Virus record (IMG/VR): IMGVR_UViG_3300046557_000378 | Direction: 5' to 3' (one strand) | Length of the DNA stretch: 62,170 nt | From: a virus | In this document: positions 6,640 to 47,154 of the stretch, one piece after another | Layout of the letters: each line of letters starts with the position of its first letter | Numbering within the stretch: the stretch's first letter is position 1 | The notes under the pieces: model-generated | Seen by the model: the letters and a program-made list of their open reading frames with translations, nothing else | The model's database searches: none | What the model was told of the DNA's origin: nothing | Position numbers and translations under genes: made by a program

Positions 6640-6669
6640 CTGTGTGTCATCACATGGAGGAGGAGACGG

Positions 6670-7269
6670 ATGGGCAACATCGGCATCATCGGCCGCGCGA
6701 GGGCCGGCAAGGACACCGCGGGGAAGTTCTTCGTCGACGGGCACGGGTACAGGCGGATCGGGTTCGCGGACGCGCTGAAGGAAGCGGCGCTGAGGCTGGA
6801 TCCGGTCGTCGGGTGCTTTCCGGACGAGGACACCCGAGCGGCCGTGTACGTGCACCTGTCGGAGGTCGTCGGTACGCACGGGTGGGAGGTTGCCAAGGAG
6901 ACCCCCGAAGTCCGCCGCATCCTCCAGGAACTCGGCTCCGCCATGCGCGCCGTCGACGAGGAGGTCTGGCTCCGCGCGGCACTGGCGAAGGTCCGCAACG
7001 CCAACGACCAGGGTGTGCCCGTCGTCATCACCGACGTCCGGTACCGCAACGAAGCGGCGTCCCTCGTCCGCGCCGGATTCCACCTGCTTCACATCAACCG
7101 ACCCGGCGTCCCGCAGCTCGACCACGAGTCGGAGCGGGATCTCGGGCCGGAGGACGCGCGCTACCTCGTCCAGAACGACGGCGATCTTGCCCACTTGGGT
7201 GAGCAGCTCGAACTCATCTGGGACGAGATTTTCGCCCTGGAGTCCGCCCGCCACTTCGCCCGCCTCTGA
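6670..7269 (+). CDS. deoxynucleoside monophosphate kinase-like P-loop kinase
   Basis: 199 aa; N-terminal Walker A GIIGRARAGKDT; size and pattern as phage dNMP kinases. Confidence 0.7.
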   Translation: MGNIGIIGRARAGKDTAGKFFVDGHGYRRIGFADALKEAALRLDPVVGCFPDEDTRAAVYVHLSEVVGTHGWEVAKETPEVRRILQELGSAMRAVDEEVWLRAALAKVRNANDQGVPVVITDVRYRNEAASLVRAGFHLLHINRPGVPQLDHESERDLGPEDARYLVQNDGDLAHLGEQLELIWDEIFALESARHFARL

Positions 7270-12124: not shown

Positions 12125-12188
12125 CACAAGTCACTCATGCTAGGCGTCCACATCGGGCGCCCCGCTTCGCATGCATGGAGGAGAGACC

Positions 12189-12827
12189 ATGACAGAGTTC
12201 GCCCCTGAGTTCCACGAGTGGCCCAAGACGAAGCGGCTCTTCAGGCCCATCACGGTGTCGGAGAAGCTCGACGGCTCGAACAGTGGCGTCGGGATCACCA
12301 AACTCGACTGGACGGACGACATCACCGCTCCGCCCGTGGACTTCAAGGTCGTGACTGTCGGCGCCGACGCGTACGCCGTTCACGCGCAGTCGAAGAACCG
12401 GATCATCTATCCCGGGAAGACCAGCGACAACTACGGCTTCGCCGGCTGGGTCTACGACAACGCCGCGGAACTCGTCGACGTCTTCGGCCCCGGACTGCAC
12501 TACGGCGAGTGGTGGGGGAGGGGGATCCAGCGAGGCTACGGCGTCGACGGTAAGCGGTTCTCGCTCTTCAACACGGCGCGGCACTTTGAGAACCCGGGGG
12601 CGGAGATCGGCGGTGTTCCGGTCGGTCCCGTTCCGGTGCTGTACGAGGGCATCTTCGACGAGTCCGCCATCACGGGCGCCCTGATGGACCTCCGGACGTA
12701 CGGTTCCGTCGCGGCCTCCGGCTTCGACAACCCGGAAGGCATCTGCGTCTACCACACACAGACCCGCAACGTCTTCAAGGTCACGCTTGACAACAACGAC
12801 GCCGGCAAGTGGGAGGCGGCTGCGTGA
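12189..12827 (+). CDS. ATP-dependent RNA ligase-like nucleotidyltransferase (minimal, adenylyltransferase domain only)
   Basis: Motif I SEKLDGSN, motif III-like YGEWWG, motif IV EGICVY, motif V FKVTL; ATG 12189 after GGAGGAGAG. Confidence 0.7.
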   Translation: MTEFAPEFHEWPKTKRLFRPITVSEKLDGSNSGVGITKLDWTDDITAPPVDFKVVTVGADAYAVHAQSKNRIIYPGKTSDNYGFAGWVYDNAAELVDVFGPGLHYGEWWGRGIQRGYGVDGKRFSLFNTARHFENPGAEIGGVPVGPVPVLYEGIFDESAITGALMDLRTYGSVAASGFDNPEGICVYHTQTRNVFKVTLDNNDAGKWEAAA

Positions 12828-16820: not shown

Positions 16821-17567
16821 ATGGCCAACAACCTTGCCTCCATCTGGGACGCCGACCCGGACGCCGCTCCGAAGGACCGTCCCAACTTCGCCGATGACAT
16901 CGTCGGCCGCTTCCGCTCCGGTCGCCTGGTCAAGCTGGGCACGAAGGAGACCCCGGAGTCGCTGAACGAGTGGCGCGTCACCACCGGTGACCCGTCCGTC
17001 GCTGCGAAGGTTGCGGAGCTGCTCGGCGGGGAGTCGGAGGAGTGGGAGACGGAGAAGGAGGACAACCTCCAGATCCTCACCGACGCCTCGTCCGTGCAGA
17101 TCATCATCGAGCCGGATGGCGTCGACGCGTCGTTCAAGCAGTTCGTTCCCGGCGCCGGTATGACGCACCACTGCGATGGGTTTTCCTACCTCTCGCCCGA
17201 CGAGGACAAGGGCCAGTCGTGCGGCTGCCCCTCGCTGATCGCGGAGCGGAAGCTGAAGGCGCAGCAGCAGCGAGGCCCGAAGCCGAGCGTGGACATCGAG
17301 TTCCGCCTCGCCGACGCTCCGGATCTCGGCAAGTTCCGGTTCAACAGCGGCAGTTGGAAGCTGGTCGAGACCCTCGCCCCGCTCTTCAAGTCGCTGGACG
17401 ACGCGGGCAACGAGACCAACCCGGTCCGTGCGTCGCTGACGATCGAGAACGTCACGTACGTCCCGCAGAAGGGCCCGCGCGCCGGCCAGACCGTCAGCTA
17501 CAACAAGCCCGTCATCAAGGTCTTCGGGCCCGTGACGGCGACCGCGGACCTGGCGAAGGCCGCGTAA
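16821..17567 (+). CDS. hypothetical early protein; possible phiC31-gp3-type recombination directionality factor (size/position only)
   Basis: 248 aa; Cys/His cluster HHCDG...CGCP; strong GC3 bias; own promoter motif and terminator. Confidence 0.7.
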   Translation: MANNLASIWDADPDAAPKDRPNFADDIVGRFRSGRLVKLGTKETPESLNEWRVTTGDPSVAAKVAELLGGESEEWETEKEDNLQILTDASSVQIIIEPDGVDASFKQFVPGAGMTHHCDGFSYLSPDEDKGQSCGCPSLIAERKLKAQQQRGPKPSVDIEFRLADAPDLGKFRFNSGSWKLVETLAPLFKSLDDAGNETNPVRASLTIENVTYVPQKGPRAGQTVSYNKPVIKVFGPVTATADLAKAA

Positions 17568-28838: not shown

Positions 28839-29630
28839 ATGAACCGCATCGAGGTCACGGACGAGCAGATCCTTGCCGCACAGACGGGCGACGGTGACGC
28901 CATGTGGGACATCGTCCAGTCGTTCGACCCCATGCTGAAGAGCATCATCCGCAGCGCCGCCCCGAGCGCCAGCGCGGAGGACGCGGAGGATCACCTCCAA
29001 GAGGGACGCGCGGTATTGATCCAGCACATTCGCGACTACGACTCGTCGTCCTCGTCGGCTCAACTCTCCTCCTACGTCTACCGTGCTGTGCGCCGCGCCA
29101 TCGCGGAGGCGGACGTCGTGTCGAAGACTCCACTCACCATTGACGCAACGGCGGCGCTCCGTGTGCGCTGGGCGCTGTGGGAGTGCGGGGGAGACACCGA
29201 GCGGGCGTGGGCGACGTTCCGTGACGCGACGTCGCCGACGAAACGGATGAGCCGGGAACTGTTCATCGCGATGGTGGAGGCACTCGCCGGTACGGAGAGT
29301 CTGGACAGTCCGTTCGCGGGATCGCTTACCAGGCGTGCGGGCGCGATGGAGCGGGACAACGGCCTGACGCTCGCCGACGTCCTGGAAGACCGGGCGACGT
29401 CGGTCACCGACCCCCTGGAGCGCCGCGACCTCGCACGCTGGCTCATGACGCAGATCCCGCAACGTCAGTCACTCGCACTCCGCGCTTTCTACGGCGTCGG
29501 CATGACTCGCATGACCGACCCGGAACTGTGCGCGGACCTGGAGGTCAACGGCGTCGCCCTCCGACGGCTCCGCTCCCGCGGAGTGGCCTCCGCCCGCACC
29601 GTGGCCGACGCTCACGACCTTGCTGCGTAA
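28839..29630 (+). CDS. sigma-70-family RNA polymerase sigma factor (group-3-like)
   Basis: 263 aa; region-2-like DAMWDIVQSFDPMLKSII...EDHLQEGRAVLIQHIRDYD...SYVYRAVRRAI; region-4-like IPQRQSLALRAFYGVGMTRMTDPELCADLEVNGVALRRLRSRG. Confidence 0.7.
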   Translation: MNRIEVTDEQILAAQTGDGDAMWDIVQSFDPMLKSIIRSAAPSASAEDAEDHLQEGRAVLIQHIRDYDSSSSSAQLSSYVYRAVRRAIAEADVVSKTPLTIDATAALRVRWALWECGGDTERAWATFRDATSPTKRMSRELFIAMVEALAGTESLDSPFAGSLTRRAGAMERDNGLTLADVLEDRATSVTDPLERRDLARWLMTQIPQRQSLALRAFYGVGMTRMTDPELCADLEVNGVALRRLRSRGVASARTVADAHDLAA

Positions 29631-38807: not shown

Positions 38808-39200
38808 GCCCGCTCGCTGGCTGCCTGTGCAGTTGGCGCGCGGCGGGCGCAGCGGGGGTCTGGGGTAGCTGATGTGAGGTCGGCCGACGCCCCAACCCCC
38901 GCCAGCGTCCGAACTCCTCGTCTCCGGCGTGCCCATCACACACGGCCGCGGACGAGGTGCCGACGTGGTTGGTTTCGCACCTTCCTGGCCACGTCGGAGC
39001 TGGGATCCCGCTCGTCCGTCTGCCGTGACTTGGGCGAGCGGGGTTCCCAGCGCCAGAACTTCCCGTCCCGAGCGATCGGAGGCGGGGCACCGCCCGTCGG
39101 TGGAGTCCCTGTCGCCAGGGACTGCCCGGGGCGGTACAGGAGCCCCACTCGTGCGACGTCCCCCGCGTTGCGTGAGTGGGGCTTCTTCATGATGCTGACA

Positions 39201-39248
39201 TACGCAGGTTCTTCTAGTACGACAACCCGTACACGGGATACCTGCGTA
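39201..39248. other. candidate attP (48-bp imperfect inverted repeat)
   Basis: TACGCAGGT...ACCTGCGTA perfect 9-bp outer arms, inner GTACG/CGTAC symmetry, centre AA; ends 15 nt before int ATG. Confidence 0.45.
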
Positions 39249-39263
39249 GGTATACTCGGACTC

Positions 39264-40826
39264 ATGACAACCCGCGTACTGGGCGCCAGGCGGCTGAGCC
39301 GCGTCAAGGACAACTCGACATCGTTCGAGCGGCAAGGCATAGCCATCGAGACGGTAGCCGCGTCTGTTGGGGGAGAAGTCGTCGCGTGGGCGGACGACCC
39401 TGACGTCAGTGCCGCGAAGGTGGCACCTAAGGACCGTCCGGAACTTGGCCCCTGGTTCGAGCGCCCCGACGAGTTCGACGCTATCGCATGGTGGAGGCTC
39501 GACAGGGCCGTTCGAAGCATGCGGGATATGGCATGGCTTGCAGGGTGGGCGCGCGATAAGAAAAAGCGTTTGATCTTCGCTGAAGGACCCGGCGGGGGAC
39601 GCCTTGAACTCGATATGTCGTCCCCCATGTCAGAGCTGATTCTGATGATTCTGGCCTTCGCCGCTCAGATGGAAGTCCAGGCAATTCAGGAGCGCACGGA
39701 AGGATCTACTGAATACCTCCGCAGCGTCGGCCGATGGAAAGGCGGACGGGTGCCTTTCGGGCGCATGCCGATCCCACATCCGGAGGAAGGCGAAGGATGG
39801 TGGCTGGGACGTCACGACAAAACAGCGAGCATCGTTGACGACATGGTGAAGCTCGTGATCGACGGAACGTCGTACAACGCACTCGCCGCGTGGCTAAACA
39901 GCAAACACCCTGGCGTCACGCCTTCCAATCACCGCCGTTCCCTGGCCACTCCGCCGAAAGAGCCGGACCCCAACGTCCGTTGGAATCCAGGGATGGTGAG
40001 TTCGTTCCTCCGTCAACCGTCGTTGAGGGGGTGGTCGATGATCGGCGACGATCCCGTGCGTGACGAGGAGGGTGAGCCCGTCAGGCTGGGTCCGCCTCTG
40101 ATCGACGATGAGACATGGAGGAGGCTCCAGGCGGAAATGGACACCAGGGAAGGAAACGGGGGCCGCAACAAGAGCGACACGCACCCGCTCCTGGGCGTTG
40201 CCTACTGCGGATCATGCGAAGGCAAGCTGTACCAAGGGTGGATCTCTGCCGGGGAGCGTCGCACAGCCAAGCGGCAGTACCGATGCGCAGCGAAGGCGCA
40301 CGGGCGCATATGCCGTAAGCCCGCGTACGTCACGGCGGATCCGGTGGACGAGTGTGTCGAAGAGGCCTTCCTCGATCAGTTCGGCCGCTTCGAGTTGATC
40401 GAGGTCATCGTCATCCCCGGTGTGGACCGCCGCGACGAGATCAAGGAGTTGGAGGCGGACGTCGAGACCCTCGCCGGGCAACTGGCCAACCTCCGCGGCG
40501 CTGCTGCGGACGCCGTCGGCCGGCAGATACAGGGGCGGTCCGACAAGCTTGCGCGTCTCCAGGAACAACCTGTCATTCCCGCGCGAACGGAGGAGGTGCG
40601 TACAGGCGTGACCTACGGCGACGCATGGCGCCGGGCAAAGGCCGACAGGGACTTGCATGCGTGCCGGAAGATGCTCCGCGATGTCGGGCTCCGTGTGACC
40701 GTTGGAGAGACGTACCGGGGCGCCCGTGACGTTCGCGCAAGGCTCAGTGTGGATGTGGTGACGCCGGATGACGTTGATCTCGCCCAGGATGCCCTTGACG
40801 ACGTGGCGGAGCAGGAGCGCCATTAG
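39264..40826 (+). CDS. int: large serine recombinase (integrase)
   Basis: 520 aa from ATG 39264; N-terminal RLSRVKDNSTSFERQ catalytic-Ser motif, Bxb1-like order; TATACT 39251-39256 suggests a leaderless mRNA; the 130 upstream in-frame codons are Arg-rich and non-coding-like. Confidence 0.85.
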   Translation: MTTRVLGARRLSRVKDNSTSFERQGIAIETVAASVGGEVVAWADDPDVSAAKVAPKDRPELGPWFERPDEFDAIAWWRLDRAVRSMRDMAWLAGWARDKKKRLIFAEGPGGGRLELDMSSPMSELILMILAFAAQMEVQAIQERTEGSTEYLRSVGRWKGGRVPFGRMPIPHPEEGEGWWLGRHDKTASIVDDMVKLVIDGTSYNALAAWLNSKHPGVTPSNHRRSLATPPKEPDPNVRWNPGMVSSFLRQPSLRGWSMIGDDPVRDEEGEPVRLGPPLIDDETWRRLQAEMDTREGNGGRNKSDTHPLLGVAYCGSCEGKLYQGWISAGERRTAKRQYRCAAKAHGRICRKPAYVTADPVDECVEEAFLDQFGRFELIEVIVIPGVDRRDEIKELEADVETLAGQLANLRGAAADAVGRQIQGRSDKLARLQEQPVIPARTEEVRTGVTYGDAWRRAKADRDLHACRKMLRDVGLRVTVGETYRGARDVRARLSVDVVTPDDVDLAQDALDDVAEQERH

Positions 40827-40977: not shown

Positions 40978-41021
40978 GCAACACTGCGTAGTCACGTGAC
41001 CCGTCGAACGGTCCAAAACGT

Positions 41022-41090
41022 CAAACTAACCCCCTACTTCTAACTCTTCTAATACGCGTTAGAGAGAAGTAGAAAAAGGGGGTTAGTTTG
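41022..41090. repeat. 69-bp AT-rich imperfect palindrome, copy 2
   Basis: About 85% identical to 9231-9299; preceded by CCAAAACGT (reverse complement of the copy 1 3' flank). Confidence 0.9.
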
Positions 41091-41127
41091 CCACTCTGTC
41101 GCACCCCCGCCGGAGGGTGCTACCAAG

Positions 41128-41157
41128 ATCACTACCGCGTCACACTTCCCCCATAAC
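41128..41157 (+). promoter_or_regulatory. phage-specific promoter-like motif, copy 5 (spacer 10 bp shorter)
   Basis: CCGCGTCACA-c-TTCCCCCATAAC; an alternative -35-like ATCACT lies 18 nt upstream of CATAAC. Confidence 0.4.
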
Positions 41158-41355
41158 AGTAGTAGGAGGGGAGGACGTGCGGCCGTCGCGAATGGCGGAC
41201 GGTCCGCTCCCCTCCCTGACGGCCGGCGCCGCTCCTGCGCTCCCCGTACTCTCTCCTCCGGGTTGAGCGCGGTTGAGCGGCCCCGGCTGTCCCAAGACTT
41301 CCTTGCCCGGTGCATGGGACTTCGACCCGCTCGAAGCCCGGAACGGGGGAGGGTA

Positions 41356-41467
41356 GATCACGTAGTGCAGCGGCCAAGCACACCCGAGGGAGTAGGGATC
41401 GAGTCCCGCCGTCTGACGGCAAGTGGTCGCCCCTGGCGTATCGCCGGTTCGAATCCGGTCGTGATCA
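41356..41467 (+). ncRNA. tRNA-like element (acceptor, D and T arms; 60-nt non-canonical core)
   Basis: GATCACG-TA-GTGC-AGCGGCCAA-GCAC ... GCCGG-TTCGAAT-CCGGT-CGTGATC-A. Confidence 0.4.
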
Positions 41468-41646
41468 CTCGCTGTGTGGAGGGTTCGAAAGCGAGCGCGG
41501 ATTGTGAGAGCGCGTGATGCCACGCAGTGGTCATGGTTCCGGGTAAGTCCCCGGCACGCGACGACCAACACCCGGACCTTGTGGGTCCGTGGCGAGTCCA
41601 CTTGCGCCCCGTACGGCGGGGAGGCGGCATACGGACTCACAACCCA

Positions 41647-41671
41647 CCCCGTCCCTTGTGGGCGGGGTTTT
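41647..41671 (+). terminator. intrinsic terminator
   Basis: CCCCGTCCC-ttgt-GGGCGGGG then TTTT. Confidence 0.75.
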
Positions 41672-41745
41672 CGACGTCACCGGAGCCGGACGCGAAGCGG
41701 TGACGCGGTCAGGACTTCGCGCCACTGGCCGCACGGTGACGTCAA

Positions 41746-41819
41746 GCCTCCGTAGCTCAGTTGGCTAGAGCGCTGCTCTCGTAAAGCAGAGGTCGCGCGT
41801 TCGACTCGCGCCGGGGGCT
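41746..41819 (+). tRNA. tRNA-Thr (anticodon CGT)
   Basis: Hand-folded cloverleaf: acceptor GCCTCCG/CGGGGGC, D arm GCTC-AGTTGGCTA-GAGC, anticodon arm CTGCT-CTCGTAA-AGCAG, T arm GCGCG-TTCGACT-CGCGC. Confidence 0.85.
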
Positions 41820-41823
41820 CTCA

Positions 41824-41901
41824 CGGGACGTGGCCAAGTTGGTTCAGGGCGCCCGCTTTGGGAGCGGGAGGGCGAAGGTTCGAGTCGCACCATCCCGACC
41901 A
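41824..41901 (+). tRNA. tRNA-Pro (anticodon TGG) with encoded CCA and aberrant T stem
   Basis: C1-G72, A73, anticodon arm CCCGC-TTTGGGA-GCGGG; T stem GAAGG/CGCAC pairs only at its two ends. Confidence 0.6.
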
Positions 41902-42937: not shown

Positions 42938-43246
42938 GTGTCAGCCTGGATTGGCAGCACGCGTAGAGCCCGCCTTCCGAAGGACTGGCCTCGTCGCCGG
43001 CTCCGTGTACTAAGGCGCGATAAGCACTCATGCACCATGGCGTTCTCCGACGGTCGCGTGTGTGGCGCACCTGCGAACCAGGTGGACCACATCGAGCCCG
43101 GTGACGACCACAGCATGGCCAACCTCCAGGCACTGTGCGCCTGGTGCCACACGCACAAGAGCAGCAGCGAGGGAGGCACAGCAGCCGCCCTCACGCGCGT
43201 GCGCACACACAGGCCCAAGCCCACACACCCAGCCCTGGAGGACTGA
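42938..43246 (+). CDS. HNH endonuclease (packaging-associated type)
   Basis: 102 aa; VDHIEPG...NLQALCAWCHTHK. Confidence 0.8.
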   Translation: MSAWIGSTRRARLPKDWPRRRLRVLRRDKHSCTMAFSDGRVCGAPANQVDHIEPGDDHSMANLQALCAWCHTHKSSSEGGTAAALTRVRTHRPKPTHPALED

Positions 43247-43871: not shown

Positions 43872-44486
43872 ATGCCAACGACACCCGCCAGGACGTGCGA
43901 GCAGTGCTCGTCGCCCCTTCCACTGATGGCCCGTCAGCACGCTCGGTACTGCGACACGCGGTGTCGGTCGAAGGCATTCAGGGCGCAGAAGAACGACGCG
44001 ACTCCACGCGAGCTGACGATCCGCGACAGGTGGATCCGGCGCAGCGCGACGAAGGTCCCCGTGACGATCGGCGGCATGCCGGCGTCGTCGACGGACCCGC
44101 GCACCTGGAGCACGCACAAGGACGCTGCCGCCTCGACGGCCAGCGTCGGTCTGGGTTTCGTGCTGAGCGACGAGGACGACATCGTCTGCCTGGACCTGGA
44201 CCACTGCTTGAACCCGCTCACGGGCCGTCTGGCTCCGTGGGCCGCAGCCATCATCCGTGACGCGGGAGCCACCTACGTAGAGGTTTCCCCGTCCGGGGAC
44301 GGACTGCACATCTGGGGCCGTGCCGACGTCCGACAGGGACGGAAGCTTCGGCGCCCCGACGGTACGGCCGTAGAGATCTACGGGACCGGCCGCTACATCG
44401 CAATGACGGGGCGCCGACATGGCAACGCCCCATCATTGCTAGCGGACGTCTCCGAGGTCATTCGTCGGCTGACTGAGGCGGATTGA
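43872..44486 (+). CDS. AEP-superfamily primase-polymerase (Prim-Pol)-like protein with N-terminal zinc ribbon
   Basis: 204 aa; CEQC...CDTRC; RW...KVP; GLGFVLSDEDDIVCLDLDHC; VEVSPSGDGLHIWG. Confidence 0.6.
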   Translation: MPTTPARTCEQCSSPLPLMARQHARYCDTRCRSKAFRAQKNDATPRELTIRDRWIRRSATKVPVTIGGMPASSTDPRTWSTHKDAAASTASVGLGFVLSDEDDIVCLDLDHCLNPLTGRLAPWAAAIIRDAGATYVEVSPSGDGLHIWGRADVRQGRKLRRPDGTAVEIYGTGRYIAMTGRRHGNAPSLLADVSEVIRRLTEAD

Positions 44487-44971: not shown

Positions 44972-45436
44972 ATGGCAGGCCGCGGACCCGCCCCCAAGGA
45001 CCCAACCAAGCGCCGTCGGCGCAACGCCGCGGATCCCGAGACGGTCATCACCCCTGACGACGAGACCCGCGGCCCTGAACTGCCGGAGGGCGTCCTAGGC
45101 GTCGACACGAAGACGGGCGAACTCTACGAGTGGCACCCCATGACCGTGGCGTGGTGGCAGACCTGGCGCGAGTCCGCGCAGGCGTCGACGTTCACCGCTA
45201 CCGACTGGTCGTTCCTCATCGACACGGCCCTCATGCACCACTCGATGTGGGACAAGGGTCAATGGACCCTGGCTGCTGAAGTCCGGCTCAGGGCAGCCAA
45301 GTTCGGCGCCACGCCGGAGGACAGGGCCCGACTGAAGCTCAAGGTCGACGAGCCCTCCGCATCCCCTCAGAAGCCCGCACAGCGCCCCGACGGGGTGACT
45401 GACATCAACTCGCGCAGGGCGCGTCTTACAGGCTAG
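44972..45436 (+). CDS. terminase small subunit (P27-like)
   Basis: 154 aa; GRGPAPKDPTKRRRRN N-terminus; immediately upstream of large terminase. Confidence 0.75.
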   Translation: MAGRGPAPKDPTKRRRRNAADPETVITPDDETRGPELPEGVLGVDTKTGELYEWHPMTVAWWQTWRESAQASTFTATDWSFLIDTALMHHSMWDKGQWTLAAEVRLRAAKFGATPEDRARLKLKVDEPSASPQKPAQRPDGVTDINSRRARLTG

Positions 45437-45444
45437 GAGACCGG

Positions 45445-47154
45445 ATGCCGCACGTCACTGTGCGCGCCCCCGGTCACGACCGCTCCCGCTCGCTCGGGTG
45501 GCTGTCGGTCGCATGGATGGAGTACTTCGTCGTGCACGGCCCTGGTGACGTCCAGGGAGAGCCTGTACGCCACGGCGACGAGTACACAGGCTTCGTCGTT
45601 GACTGCTACGCGGTTGACGACGACGAGGGAAAACTCCTCTACGACTCCGCGTTCTTCTCCCGCCCGAAAGGGTGCGATAAGAGCGGGCTCGGTGCCCGCA
45701 TCGGGCTCTTCGAGGCGTTCGGCCCCTGCCGGTTCGACGGATGGGCGGAAGGCGGTGAGGTCTACGAGGACCCTTGGGGTCTCGGCTTCGAGTACGTCTA
45801 CGAGCCCGGTGAGCCGATGGGACGCCCGGTCCGCGTCCCGTACCTCCGCATCATGGCAACGGAGGAAGGCCAGACCGGCAACGTCTACGACACCATCCAT
45901 TTCAACCTGACCGACGAGGCGTCACGCCTTTCGCAAATCCCGGGCGTAGACCCCGGATTGACAAAGATCAACCTTCCCGACGGCGGAGAGATAACGCCGT
46001 CAACGGCGTCCGCATCGTCGAAAGACGGCGGTAAGGAAACGTGGGTCTGTTTCGACGAGACCCATCTGTACAACACGCCTGAACTGCGCCGGATGTACAC
46101 GACAATGACTCGTAACCTCCGGAAGCGAAAGAAGAACGCCGGCACATGGTATTTGGAAACAACGACCATGTTCGCCCCCGGTCAAGACTCTGTAGCTGAA
46201 AAGACCTACGAGGAAGCCGAAGCCATCCGTGAGGGGAGGAAAAAGCGCGGTCGCGCGCGACTCCTCTACGACCACCGATACGGCGTCTGCAAAGACCTCA
46301 AGAACGAGGACGAACTCCGCGCGGCGCTGATCGACTCCTACGGCGACGCCATGGAGTGGATGGACATCGAGACCCTTGTCGATGACTTCTACGACCTGCG
46401 TAACGATGCCGCGGACGGCAAGCGCTACTTCCTCAACTCCCGGACGTCCTCCTCCGACGCGTGGATGGACTCCGACGCGTGGGAGGTATGCCGCCGGCCG
46501 GAGGAGATAGCCCCCGGTGAACTGGTCACACTCGGGTTCGACGGCTCGATTCGCGACGACGCAACGGCGTTGTGCGCCTGTCGGGTGTCTGACGGGCACC
46601 TGCAACTTCTCGGCGTCTGGGAGAAGCCCGAAGGGCCCGAAGGCGAGGGCTGGCAAGTCGACCGCGAGTCCGTTGACAACACCGTTGCCCGAGCGTTCGA
46701 CAAATACGAGGTCTGCGGTTTCTACTGCGACCCGCCGCACTGGCAGGACTACGTGGACAAATGGACGTCGGAGCACAGCGAAGGCCTCCAGGTGTGCGCC
46801 ACACAGGCACGCCCGCTGGAATGGTGGACCAACCGGCCAACGGCGATGGAACACGCGTTGGACCGCTTCGTTGAGGCCGTTGACGACAAGGCGTTGTCGT
46901 TTGCCGGAACTGAACGCTCGGATGACGAGGAATCGTTTTCCAAACTCGGGGCAACGCTCACCCGTCACGTACTAAACGCCAAGCGACGCCCGATGGGGCG
47001 CAACCACATGGGCATCGGCAAGGAACACGCTAAGTCCTCGAAGAAAATCGACGCCGCCATGTCCGCCACGCTCGCTTACGAGTGCCGCGCTGACGCCATC
47101 GCGGCCGGAATCACGAAGCGCAAAAAGCGCTCGTCCAAGCTACACGCCTTTTAG
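45445..47154 (+). CDS. terminase large subunit
   Basis: 569 aa; position and size; ATPase then nuclease-like halves (CFDETH, GFDGS...D). Confidence 0.85.
   Translation: MPHVTVRAPGHDRSRSLGWLSVAWMEYFVVHGPGDVQGEPVRHGDEYTGFVVDCYAVDDDEGKLLYDSAFFSRPKGCDKSGLGARIGLFEAFGPCRFDGWAEGGEVYEDPWGLGFEYVYEPGEPMGRPVRVPYLRIMATEEGQTGNVYDTIHFNLTDEASRLSQIPGVDPGLTKINLPDGGEITPSTASASSKDGGKETWVCFDETHLYNTPELRRMYTTMTRNLRKRKKNAGTWYLETTTMFAPGQDSVAEKTYEEAEAIREGRKKRGRARLLYDHRYGVCKDLKNEDELRAALIDSYGDAMEWMDIETLVDDFYDLRNDAADGKRYFLNSRTSSSDAWMDSDAWEVCRRPEEIAPGELVTLGFDGSIRDDATALCACRVSDGHLQLLGVWEKPEGPEGEGWQVDRESVDNTVARAFDKYEVCGFYCDPPHWQDYVDKWTSEHSEGLQVCATQARPLEWWTNRPTAMEHALDRFVEAVDDKALSFAGTERSDDEESFSKLGATLTRHVLNAKRRPMGRNHMGIGKEHAKSSKKIDAAMSATLAYECRADAIAAGITKRKKRSSKLHAF

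Follow-up and report, generated by a model that had tools for sequence, protein, structure and literature searches.

The window analysed here, the whole stretch of 62,170 nucleotides of IMG/VR virus record IMGVR_UViG_3300046557_000378, is the genome of a Samy-like temperate Streptomyces phage, and its large terminase (TerL) shares 90% identity with the Samy protein. It encodes a serine integrase, a Gp3-like recombination directionality factor and a sigma-70 region-2 protein, which together are consistent with a temperate phage of the Samy type. Between the integrase and an HNH endonuclease gene lie two tRNA genes and, upstream of them, the tRNA-like element that is the subject of this work (Table 1).

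The gap after the integrase holds a near-perfect AT-rich palindrome of about 79 nt with arms of about 35 nt, which drew spurious miRNA-precursor matches from Rfam and has a similar counterpart at the same place in Samy (L096 of our locus numbering, about 6663-6735); it could act as a bidirectional terminator or bind a protein. The non-coding block of about 200 nt that follows is common to the loci L002, L009, L010 and L061 and to Samy, where an annotated hypothetical protein starts inside it. RNAalifold predicts hairpins in this block with no net covariation. Its inclusion in a larger RNA together with the element was considered and rejected: the absence of net covariation and its retention in Samy, which has the same layout of integrase, palindrome, leader and tRNA and lacks the element, indicate that the two are separate. 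The block may be a promoter or leader, or an RNA of its own. On the other side of the element, the interval before tRNA-Thr contains a T-loop-like sequence, GGAGGGTTCGAAAGC, and the matching space in L002 is occupied by a tRNA-Glu and a tRNA-His. The tRNA-Pro scores 38.8 bits against the Rfam tRNA model and has three mismatched T-stem pairs; both it and the GGAGGGTTCGAAAGC region may be decayed tRNA genes.

The window also encodes an RNA ligase-family protein, homologues of which are annotated as "RNA ligase" in Streptomyces, Arthrobacter and Mycobacterium phages, and its sequence suggests RNA or tRNA repair in this phage. Ligase and element do not co-occur: no ligase is annotated in Arthrobacter phage EvePickles, which carries the element, and phage Auxilium has the ligase and no copy of the element in blastn with the element queries.

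Table 1. Positions of the features discussed, in the coordinates of the window; fractions refer to the alignment of 28 family members
Feature	Position	Strand	Remarks
RNA ligase-family protein	12171-12827	+	218 aa; PF09414, 32.7 bits; phrog_548
Gp3-like recombination directionality factor	16821-17567	+	
Sigma-70 region-2 protein	28839-29630	+	Possibly a phage sigma factor
Serine integrase	38874-40826		Upstream of element; element 530 nt downstream of it
Palindrome	41017-41095		
Non-coding block	41150-41355		Directly upstream of element
Element, whole	41356-41468	+	
Acceptor stem, 5' strand, GATCACG	41356-41362	+	Pairs perfectly with 41460-41466; double-sided changes at 7/7 pairs family-wide
U8-A9 linker, TA	41363-41364	+	T in 28/28
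D arm, stem GTGC/GCAC, loop AGCGGCCAA	41365-41381	+	A14, G18, G19 and A21 equivalents; A, GG and A in 28/28
P3 (CCCGA, anticodon-stem equivalent) and extension P3b (G,GG), 5' strand	41383-41390	+	Partner 41431-41438
Junction strand AGTA	41391-41394	+	G in 26/28, A in 27/28
Inner T-loop hairpin T', GGG-ATCGAGT-CCC	41395-41407	+	GG, TCGAGT and CC in 28/28
Inner capped hairpin AS', GCCG-TCTGA-CGGC	41408-41420	+	Adjoins T' without linker; 3-bp core conserved
D-loop-like junction strand AAGTGGTCGC	41421-41430	+	GG in 28/28
P3b/P3, 3' strand (CC,C,TGGCG)	41431-41438	+	Partner 41383-41390
Variable loop, 4 nt, TATC	41439-41442	+	Family consensus TAAC; tRNA-Glu of phage L002 also 4 nt (TGAC)
T arm, GCCGG-TTCGAAT-CCGGT	41443-41459	+	TTC, A, T and the CC/GG closing pairs invariant
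Acceptor stem, 3' strand, CGTGATC, with discriminator A (41467) and conserved C (41468)	41460-41468	+	Pairs with 41356-41362
Interval between element and tRNA-Thr	41469-41745		277 nt
tRNA-Thr(CGU)	41746-41820		
tRNA-Pro(UGG)	41824-41901		
HNH endonuclease	42938-43246		Downstream of tRNA-Thr and tRNA-Pro
ORF of a PHROG family labelled DNA polymerase/primase	43872-44486		Weaker HNH matches
Small terminase	44972-45436		
Large terminase	45445-47154		Followed by portal protein

A preliminary description of positions 41356-41467 gave the sequence as GATCACG-TA-GTGC-AGCGGCCAA-GCAC-A-(60 nt)-GCCGG-TTCGAAT-CCGGT-CGTGATC-A and recognised in it an acceptor stem, a D arm and a T arm in tRNA register. The sequence is as reported, the three parts stand in exact tRNA register around the 60-nt centre, and about thirty homologues keep this architecture with compensatory changes in every helix. 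Pair 13-25 of the D stem covaries (GC in 16 members, CG in 10); the last base of the variable loop makes the Levitt pair 15:48 with D-loop position 15, as G:C in 27 members and A:U in L007; and the T arm is paired in 100% of cells, with three covarying pairs. An "AC" follows the acceptor stem in nearly all members, most of which have no encoded CCA. G.U pairs are frequent, and the nine found at T-stem pair 106-122 alone, which would be C.A on the opposite strand, point to the plus strand as the RNA.

The centre had been described as holding no anticodon arm. The 7-nt anticodon loop is indeed missing, but the helix is present: P3 and P3b form a stem that pairs cleanly in the relatives, P3b being an extension of 2-3 bp past a small bulge, and all seven family pairs change on both sides. 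Covarying variants of P3 include CCGCG/CGCGG, CCCCA/TGGGG, CTCCA/TGGAG, CCGTG/CACGG and TCGCG/CGCGA; the window copy has mismatches at C29.C82 and G31.G80, followed by three extra G-C pairs. Two of the hairpins originally listed for the centre, GGGA-TCGAG-TCCC and GCCG-TCTGA-CGGC, are conserved and real (T' and AS', respectively), while the third, GGCG-TAT-CGCC, is discarded, as it overlaps the 3' strand of the anticodon stem, the variable loop and the T stem. Throughout the family T' consists of 3 bp closing the loop (T/A)TCGAGT, the canonical T-loop sequence TTCGAGT being found in 12 of the 28 members, and its outer pair covaries (GC in 17, CG in 10). The length of AS' differs between members, with GAAA, UUCG and the like as caps. 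The G of the first junction strand can pair with the invariant C at 41430, a combination that is G-C in 26 of 28 members. The second junction strand has the consensus A-R-Y-G-G-C-C, agreeing at six of seven positions with the outer D loop, A-G-M-G-G-C-C.

Standard tools do not report the element. ARAGORN finds in the window only the two tRNA genes, the Rfam scan likewise returns these two and no match at the element even at E<=10, so that the window copy stays below the tRNA gathering score, and ARAGORN with default settings calls none of the 28 family members; the absence of a canonical tRNA noted in the preliminary description is thus borne out. Three relatives pass the Rfam tRNA gathering threshold of 29 bits (49.1, 31.9 and 29.8 bits), in each case only with 41 nt treated as an insertion. 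A weak Twister-sister match below threshold (E = 0.048) was obtained for L073 and for no other member. The minimum free energy of the window copy is ordinary (z = -1.07), so support for the element comes from comparison and not from thermodynamics; its fold constrained to the consensus has -41.4 kcal/mol, 2.5 above the minimum of -43.9 kcal/mol.

The 1.4-kb region had no megablast match among 50,697 phage records. Sensitive blastn of the same records with three family members gave EvePickles as sole match, in an unannotated 168-nt gap between the genes for the capsid maturation protease and the scaffolding protein. Scanning IMG/VR, GTDB genomes and JGI metagenomes by pattern yielded further candidates, which were confirmed with a covariance model, R1, so that the family survey is one of pattern-seeded loci. 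Members score 65-118 bits with R1, against at most 60 bits for about 480 ordinary tRNAs of the same loci. The family of about thirty distinct homologues comprises EvePickles, IMG/VR and soil metagenome contigs, and actinobacterial prophages in Streptomyces iranensis, a Streptomyces sp., a Rhodococcus and a Nocardia. Several unrelated phage contigs from IMG/VR have a tRNA-like appendage of a different kind: about 10-25 nt or less beyond a canonical tRNA comes another T-arm, and in some of them a stem beside it recalls an acceptor/T-arm minihelix (L014 6154-6204, equal to L041; L016 4833-4881; L017 1003-1051; and others).

RNAalifold on a MAFFT alignment recovers all helices. A structure of 29 pairs is satisfied in 94.5% of the cells of that alignment and 21 of the 29 pairs show double changes, values of which none was reached in 500 shuffled controls, and structures slid along the alignment were paired in 33-46%. 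In the 28-sequence alignment double changes affect 22 of 31 pairs and about 95% of cells are paired, again beyond any of 500 shuffles. Invariant bases include U8, A14, G18G19, A21 and the T-loop bases of the shell, and the GG-TCGAGT-CC of T' and the GG of the junction strand in the insert, which is the most conserved region of the molecule. In the subgroup of EvePickles the acceptor stem has 6 bp and position 1-72 is usually unpaired, which leaves the exact mature ends uncertain. We are highly confident that 41356-41468(+) is the gene for a structured, non-decoding tRNA-like RNA, one of a conserved family of accessory RNAs in temperate phages of Actinobacteria. This RNA family is apparently undescribed: literature searches turned up no account of it, Rfam has no matching family, and the only cultured example in GenBank carries the element unannotated.

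The outer shell is a full tRNA body. When the insert is exchanged for a 7-nt loop ARAGORN calls a cloverleaf tRNA in 28 of 28 members, and the Rfam tRNA model aligns L007 from end to end (the relative with 49.1 bits) with an intact anticodon stem, which is its P3, and a loop grown from 7 to 41 nt. Several observations connect this body with tRNA-Glu. The D arm of divergent members reads GTCTAGCGGCCxAGGAC, which we take to be that of bacterial tRNA-Glu; of the four canonical tRNAs scoring highest with R1 (59.8-47.2 bits), three are for Glu and the fourth is for Gln; among the five nearest tRNAs of each member, 55 of 140 entries are Glu, against a share of 4.5% in the comparison set; and L002, a close relative of the window phage, has a tRNA-Glu(UUC) 58 nt downstream of its element that agrees with the shell in D stem and in a variable loop of 4 nt. 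The shell is of the tRNA-Glu type, and its descent from tRNA-Glu is in our judgement probable. The earlier suggestion of a tRNA disrupted by an insertion of 35-40 nt was therefore right about the anatomy and probably about the ancestry, but it does not hold if disruption is taken to imply a dead gene, given that the insert is the most conserved part and the helices covary.

In place of the anticodon loop stands a module of about 41 nt with a three-way junction, made up of the extension of the anticodon stem, T', AS' set directly on it and the D-loop-like strand, in that order and without a D stem. By analogy with the tRNA elbow, T' and the GG strand are modelled as a second one with its parts in the permuted order V, T, acceptor-like hairpin, D, as in YrlA RNAs, and the whole molecule is predicted to be rod-shaped, one elbow lying at either end. 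Covariation gives no signal on the contact between T' and GG, as the bases concerned never vary. The likeness of T' to the outer T arm and of the junction strand to the outer D loop suggests that the element goes back to a phage tRNA-Glu gene duplicated internally or in tandem. Two other arrangements were considered and set aside: a pseudoknot between the D loop and the inner strand (GGCC/GGCC) shows no compensatory changes and does not fit L007, so that the local elbow of T' and GG is preferred, and a small ribozyme of the hammerhead or twister type in the three-way junction finds no support in Rfam and lacks the core motifs.

No single splicing scheme leaves a conserved anticodon across the orthologues, and without an anticodon the RNA would be unable to decode. 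As its function we tentatively propose, at somewhat less than even odds and from sequence comparison, mimicry of a tRNA, possibly tRNA-Glu, acting in trans on a host tRNA-binding factor. The element would be transcribed together with its neighbours, excised by RNase P and a 3' nuclease and given a CCA end like the tRNAs beside it; the mature RNA would then occupy or redirect the factor, which might be an enzyme that processes or modifies tRNAs or else a toxin or defence enzyme aimed at them, and the conserved inner elbow would be the specific contact to it. A decoy for acceptor-end enzymes could do without a conserved inner module, and we know of no host factor documented to need two elbows. 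A bolder form of the proposal, which we rate as rather unlikely, is that of a new class of accessory phage RNA, a double-elbow mimic of tRNA-Glu which clamps a host tRNA-recognising machine by two corners at a fixed distance and so neutralises or hijacks it; a tRNA-targeting defence toxin or a dimeric tRNA-processing enzyme would be candidates. For the account as a whole, that is the family, its structure, the descent from tRNA-Glu and the mimicry in trans, the chances seem to us about even, and it is the best explanation that we have.

The distribution of the element bears on an alternative in cis, in which it would serve as tRNA punctuation, present in order to be cut by RNase P and RNase Z. 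The cuts would divide a polycistronic transcript, between the protease and the scaffold-capsid genes or between the integrase region and the late operon, and would determine how stable the mRNA downstream is. At every locus the element is intergenic and oriented like its neighbours, often just upstream of packaging or head genes, and in EvePickles and L004 it starts about 5 nt past the stop codon of the protease, with the 5' UTR of the scaffold gene next to it, all of which fits such a role. However, any tRNA would do for punctuation, which leaves the high conservation of the inner module unexplained. The slot between protease and scaffold that holds the element in EvePickles and L004 holds a tRNA-Trp in Hestia and a spacer of about 60 nt that is not a tRNA in the close relative Richie; Richie and Samy, both without the element, show that it is not required in those operons. 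Other copies lie upstream of terminase genes and, less in keeping with punctuation, between RusA and primase genes or near a glycosyltransferase gene. We regard the punctuation role as quite unlikely.

Downstream of this variable slot L001 (3105-3160) and its equivalents in L202, L203 and L004 have a conserved scaffold 5' UTR in common. In these four Arthrobacter-type phages it contains a hairpin, TTCCTT-TCCGGGATGGAT-AAGGAA, followed by AGGAGG, and the cargo is swapped precisely in front of it. Clustering of the neighbourhoods of 19 loci revealed no conserved partner protein within 6 kb on either side, and genomic positions vary. Pfam and PHROG annotation of the neighbours showed only terminase, portal, HNH and integrase proteins to recur, with no RNA-binding or RNA-modifying partner among them. 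The lack of the element in Samy and Richie, the changing cargo of the slot and the variable positions characterise it as an accessory cassette, and it behaves as tRNA-gene cassettes do, mobile between backbones and independent of any one neighbour.

A second alternative to mimicry of a host factor's tRNA substrate starts from the inner module, whose succession of T arm, closed acceptor-like hairpin and D-like element, hung on a stem, resembles that of YrlA. The module might act as a Y-RNA-like adaptor which recruits host Ro60 (Rsr) together with PNPase, or another RNA-decay machine, and YrlA RNAs do occur in phages and actinobacteria (PMC4201824). Against this, no TROVE (Ro60) protein was found in the window in Pfam and PHROG scans of all ORFs of at least 400 aa and 35 more, in accordance with the original remark that no Rsr/Ro60 gene is present, nor among eight large flanking ORFs at six other loci scanned with PHROG. 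Neither is the Ro-binding strand GNCGAAN0-1G at conserved positions of the 28-sequence alignment; no Rfam family matches at E<=10; the inner module has no D stem; and the 5' and 3' ends close an acceptor stem and not a Ro-binding helix. An adaptor of this kind is improbable. The original suggestion of a tRNA-mimicking module of a non-coding RNA was right in kind; on the same evidence the element is not a Y RNA of the YrlA type.

A decoding tRNA is a third alternative: the gene could be an intron-containing tRNA-Glu which is spliced to a normal one, or it could read a codon through the T' loop (U-CGA-G, anticodon CGA). The shell is a perfect tRNA body, the T' loop carries at its second and sixth positions a U and a purine that recall U33 and R37, and ARAGORN in intron mode returns a "tRNA" for 27 of 28 members. 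These calls, however, have six isotypes and intron sites that differ among orthologues, so that their anticodons are mutually inconsistent. No single intron restores the same 7-nt anticodon loop, a group I core or BHB motif was not found with Rfam, and to our knowledge bacteria have no BHB splicing endonuclease; an intron-containing tRNA was rejected on this basis. The bases flanking the insert are paired and covary (P3b), unlike those of a YU-NNN-R loop. As to reading through T', its 3-bp stem, invariant G-C closing pair and TTCGAGT loop are the signature of a T-loop and not of an anticodon arm, and its position on a three-way junction should clash with the decoding centre. Decoding by either route appears highly improbable.

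That the element is a dead tRNA pseudogene, or a scar of nested att/tRNA rearrangements as was also suggested at first, is hardly credible. It does lie near a serine integrase and beside tRNA genes, and the window copy has its two P3 mismatches. Against this, the family counts about thirty homologues, which occur on unrelated phage backbones and represent four actinobacterial genera, with compensatory changes throughout their helices and with invariant loop bases; the covariation effectively refutes the idea. The att repeat of Samy is found upstream of the integrase and not at the element's place, and the EvePickles copy is 23 kb away from the recombinase.

Mimicry in trans remains the reading we prefer, with consequences for how arrays of phage tRNAs are understood. 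Such arrays are usually read as codon supplements or as spares against anticodon nucleases; the present family shows that they also hold a conserved RNA with all features of a tRNA except decoding, plus a predicted second elbow. If the double-elbow proposal were true, it would be an RNA-only factor of counter-defence or host takeover carried in phage tRNA arrays. EvePickles and its sister phages offer a natural test set, with the empty slot of Richie and the tRNA-Trp of Hestia, all plating on Arthrobacter globiformis B-2979. The identity of the partner would tell whether tRNA mimicry is an RNA-based weapon in the conflict between actinobacterial phages and their hosts. It would also offer structural biology a compact natural case in which a permuted tRNA module is joined to a normal tRNA.

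Among known RNAs one of the closest is YrlA, the Y RNA with a tRNA-like domain described by Chen et al. 2014 (PMC4201824), which in M. smegmatis is cut by RNase P and receives CCA (PMC4201824). Both are non-decoding mimics with T-arm and D-loop features and no anticodon, both are found in actinobacteria and phages, and the order of T arm, closed acceptor-like hairpin and D element in the inner module resembles the permuted order of YrlA. The element differs in that it lacks a neighbouring Ro60 gene, a Ro-binding helix and the Ro-binding motif; its inner module has no D stem and sits within the anticodon stem of another tRNA body, one of normal order; and similarity to YrlA in sequence or by covariance model was not detected. 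It is not a member of YrlA.

Another close comparison is with phage tRNA-Glu. The D arms of the element and of the tRNA-Glu(UUC) of L002, TA-GTGC-AGCGGTC(A/T)A-GCAC, are nearly identical, with the same stem and a loop one base apart, and the two also agree in a 5-bp anticodon stem, a variable loop of 4 nt, the T loop TTCGAAT and a discriminator A followed by C; both occur in tRNA arrays. From a canonical tRNA-Glu the element is distinguished by its 41 or so structured nucleotides, the missing anticodon and an acceptor stem of unconstrained sequence. The tRNA-like domain of tmRNA also has an acceptor stem and T arm without an anticodon, whereas the element has a full D arm, is not called as tmRNA by ARAGORN and has no G3.U70 (pair 3-70 of the window copy is U-A), tag ORF or pseudoknots.

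Other tRNA-shaped RNAs that do not decode are the vtRNAs of MHV68 and mascRNA, expected products of RNase P and RNase Z with CCA and no working anticodon, which act by mimicry. They belong to eukaryotic systems, are smaller and possess only one elbow, with no sign of homology to the element. In phage T4 "species 1/2" are stable RNAs of the tRNA cluster that are co-processed with the phage tRNAs; the likeness is one of description, a second T-loop module not being known in their architecture. The element is a new architectural variant inside the known class of tRNA mimics.
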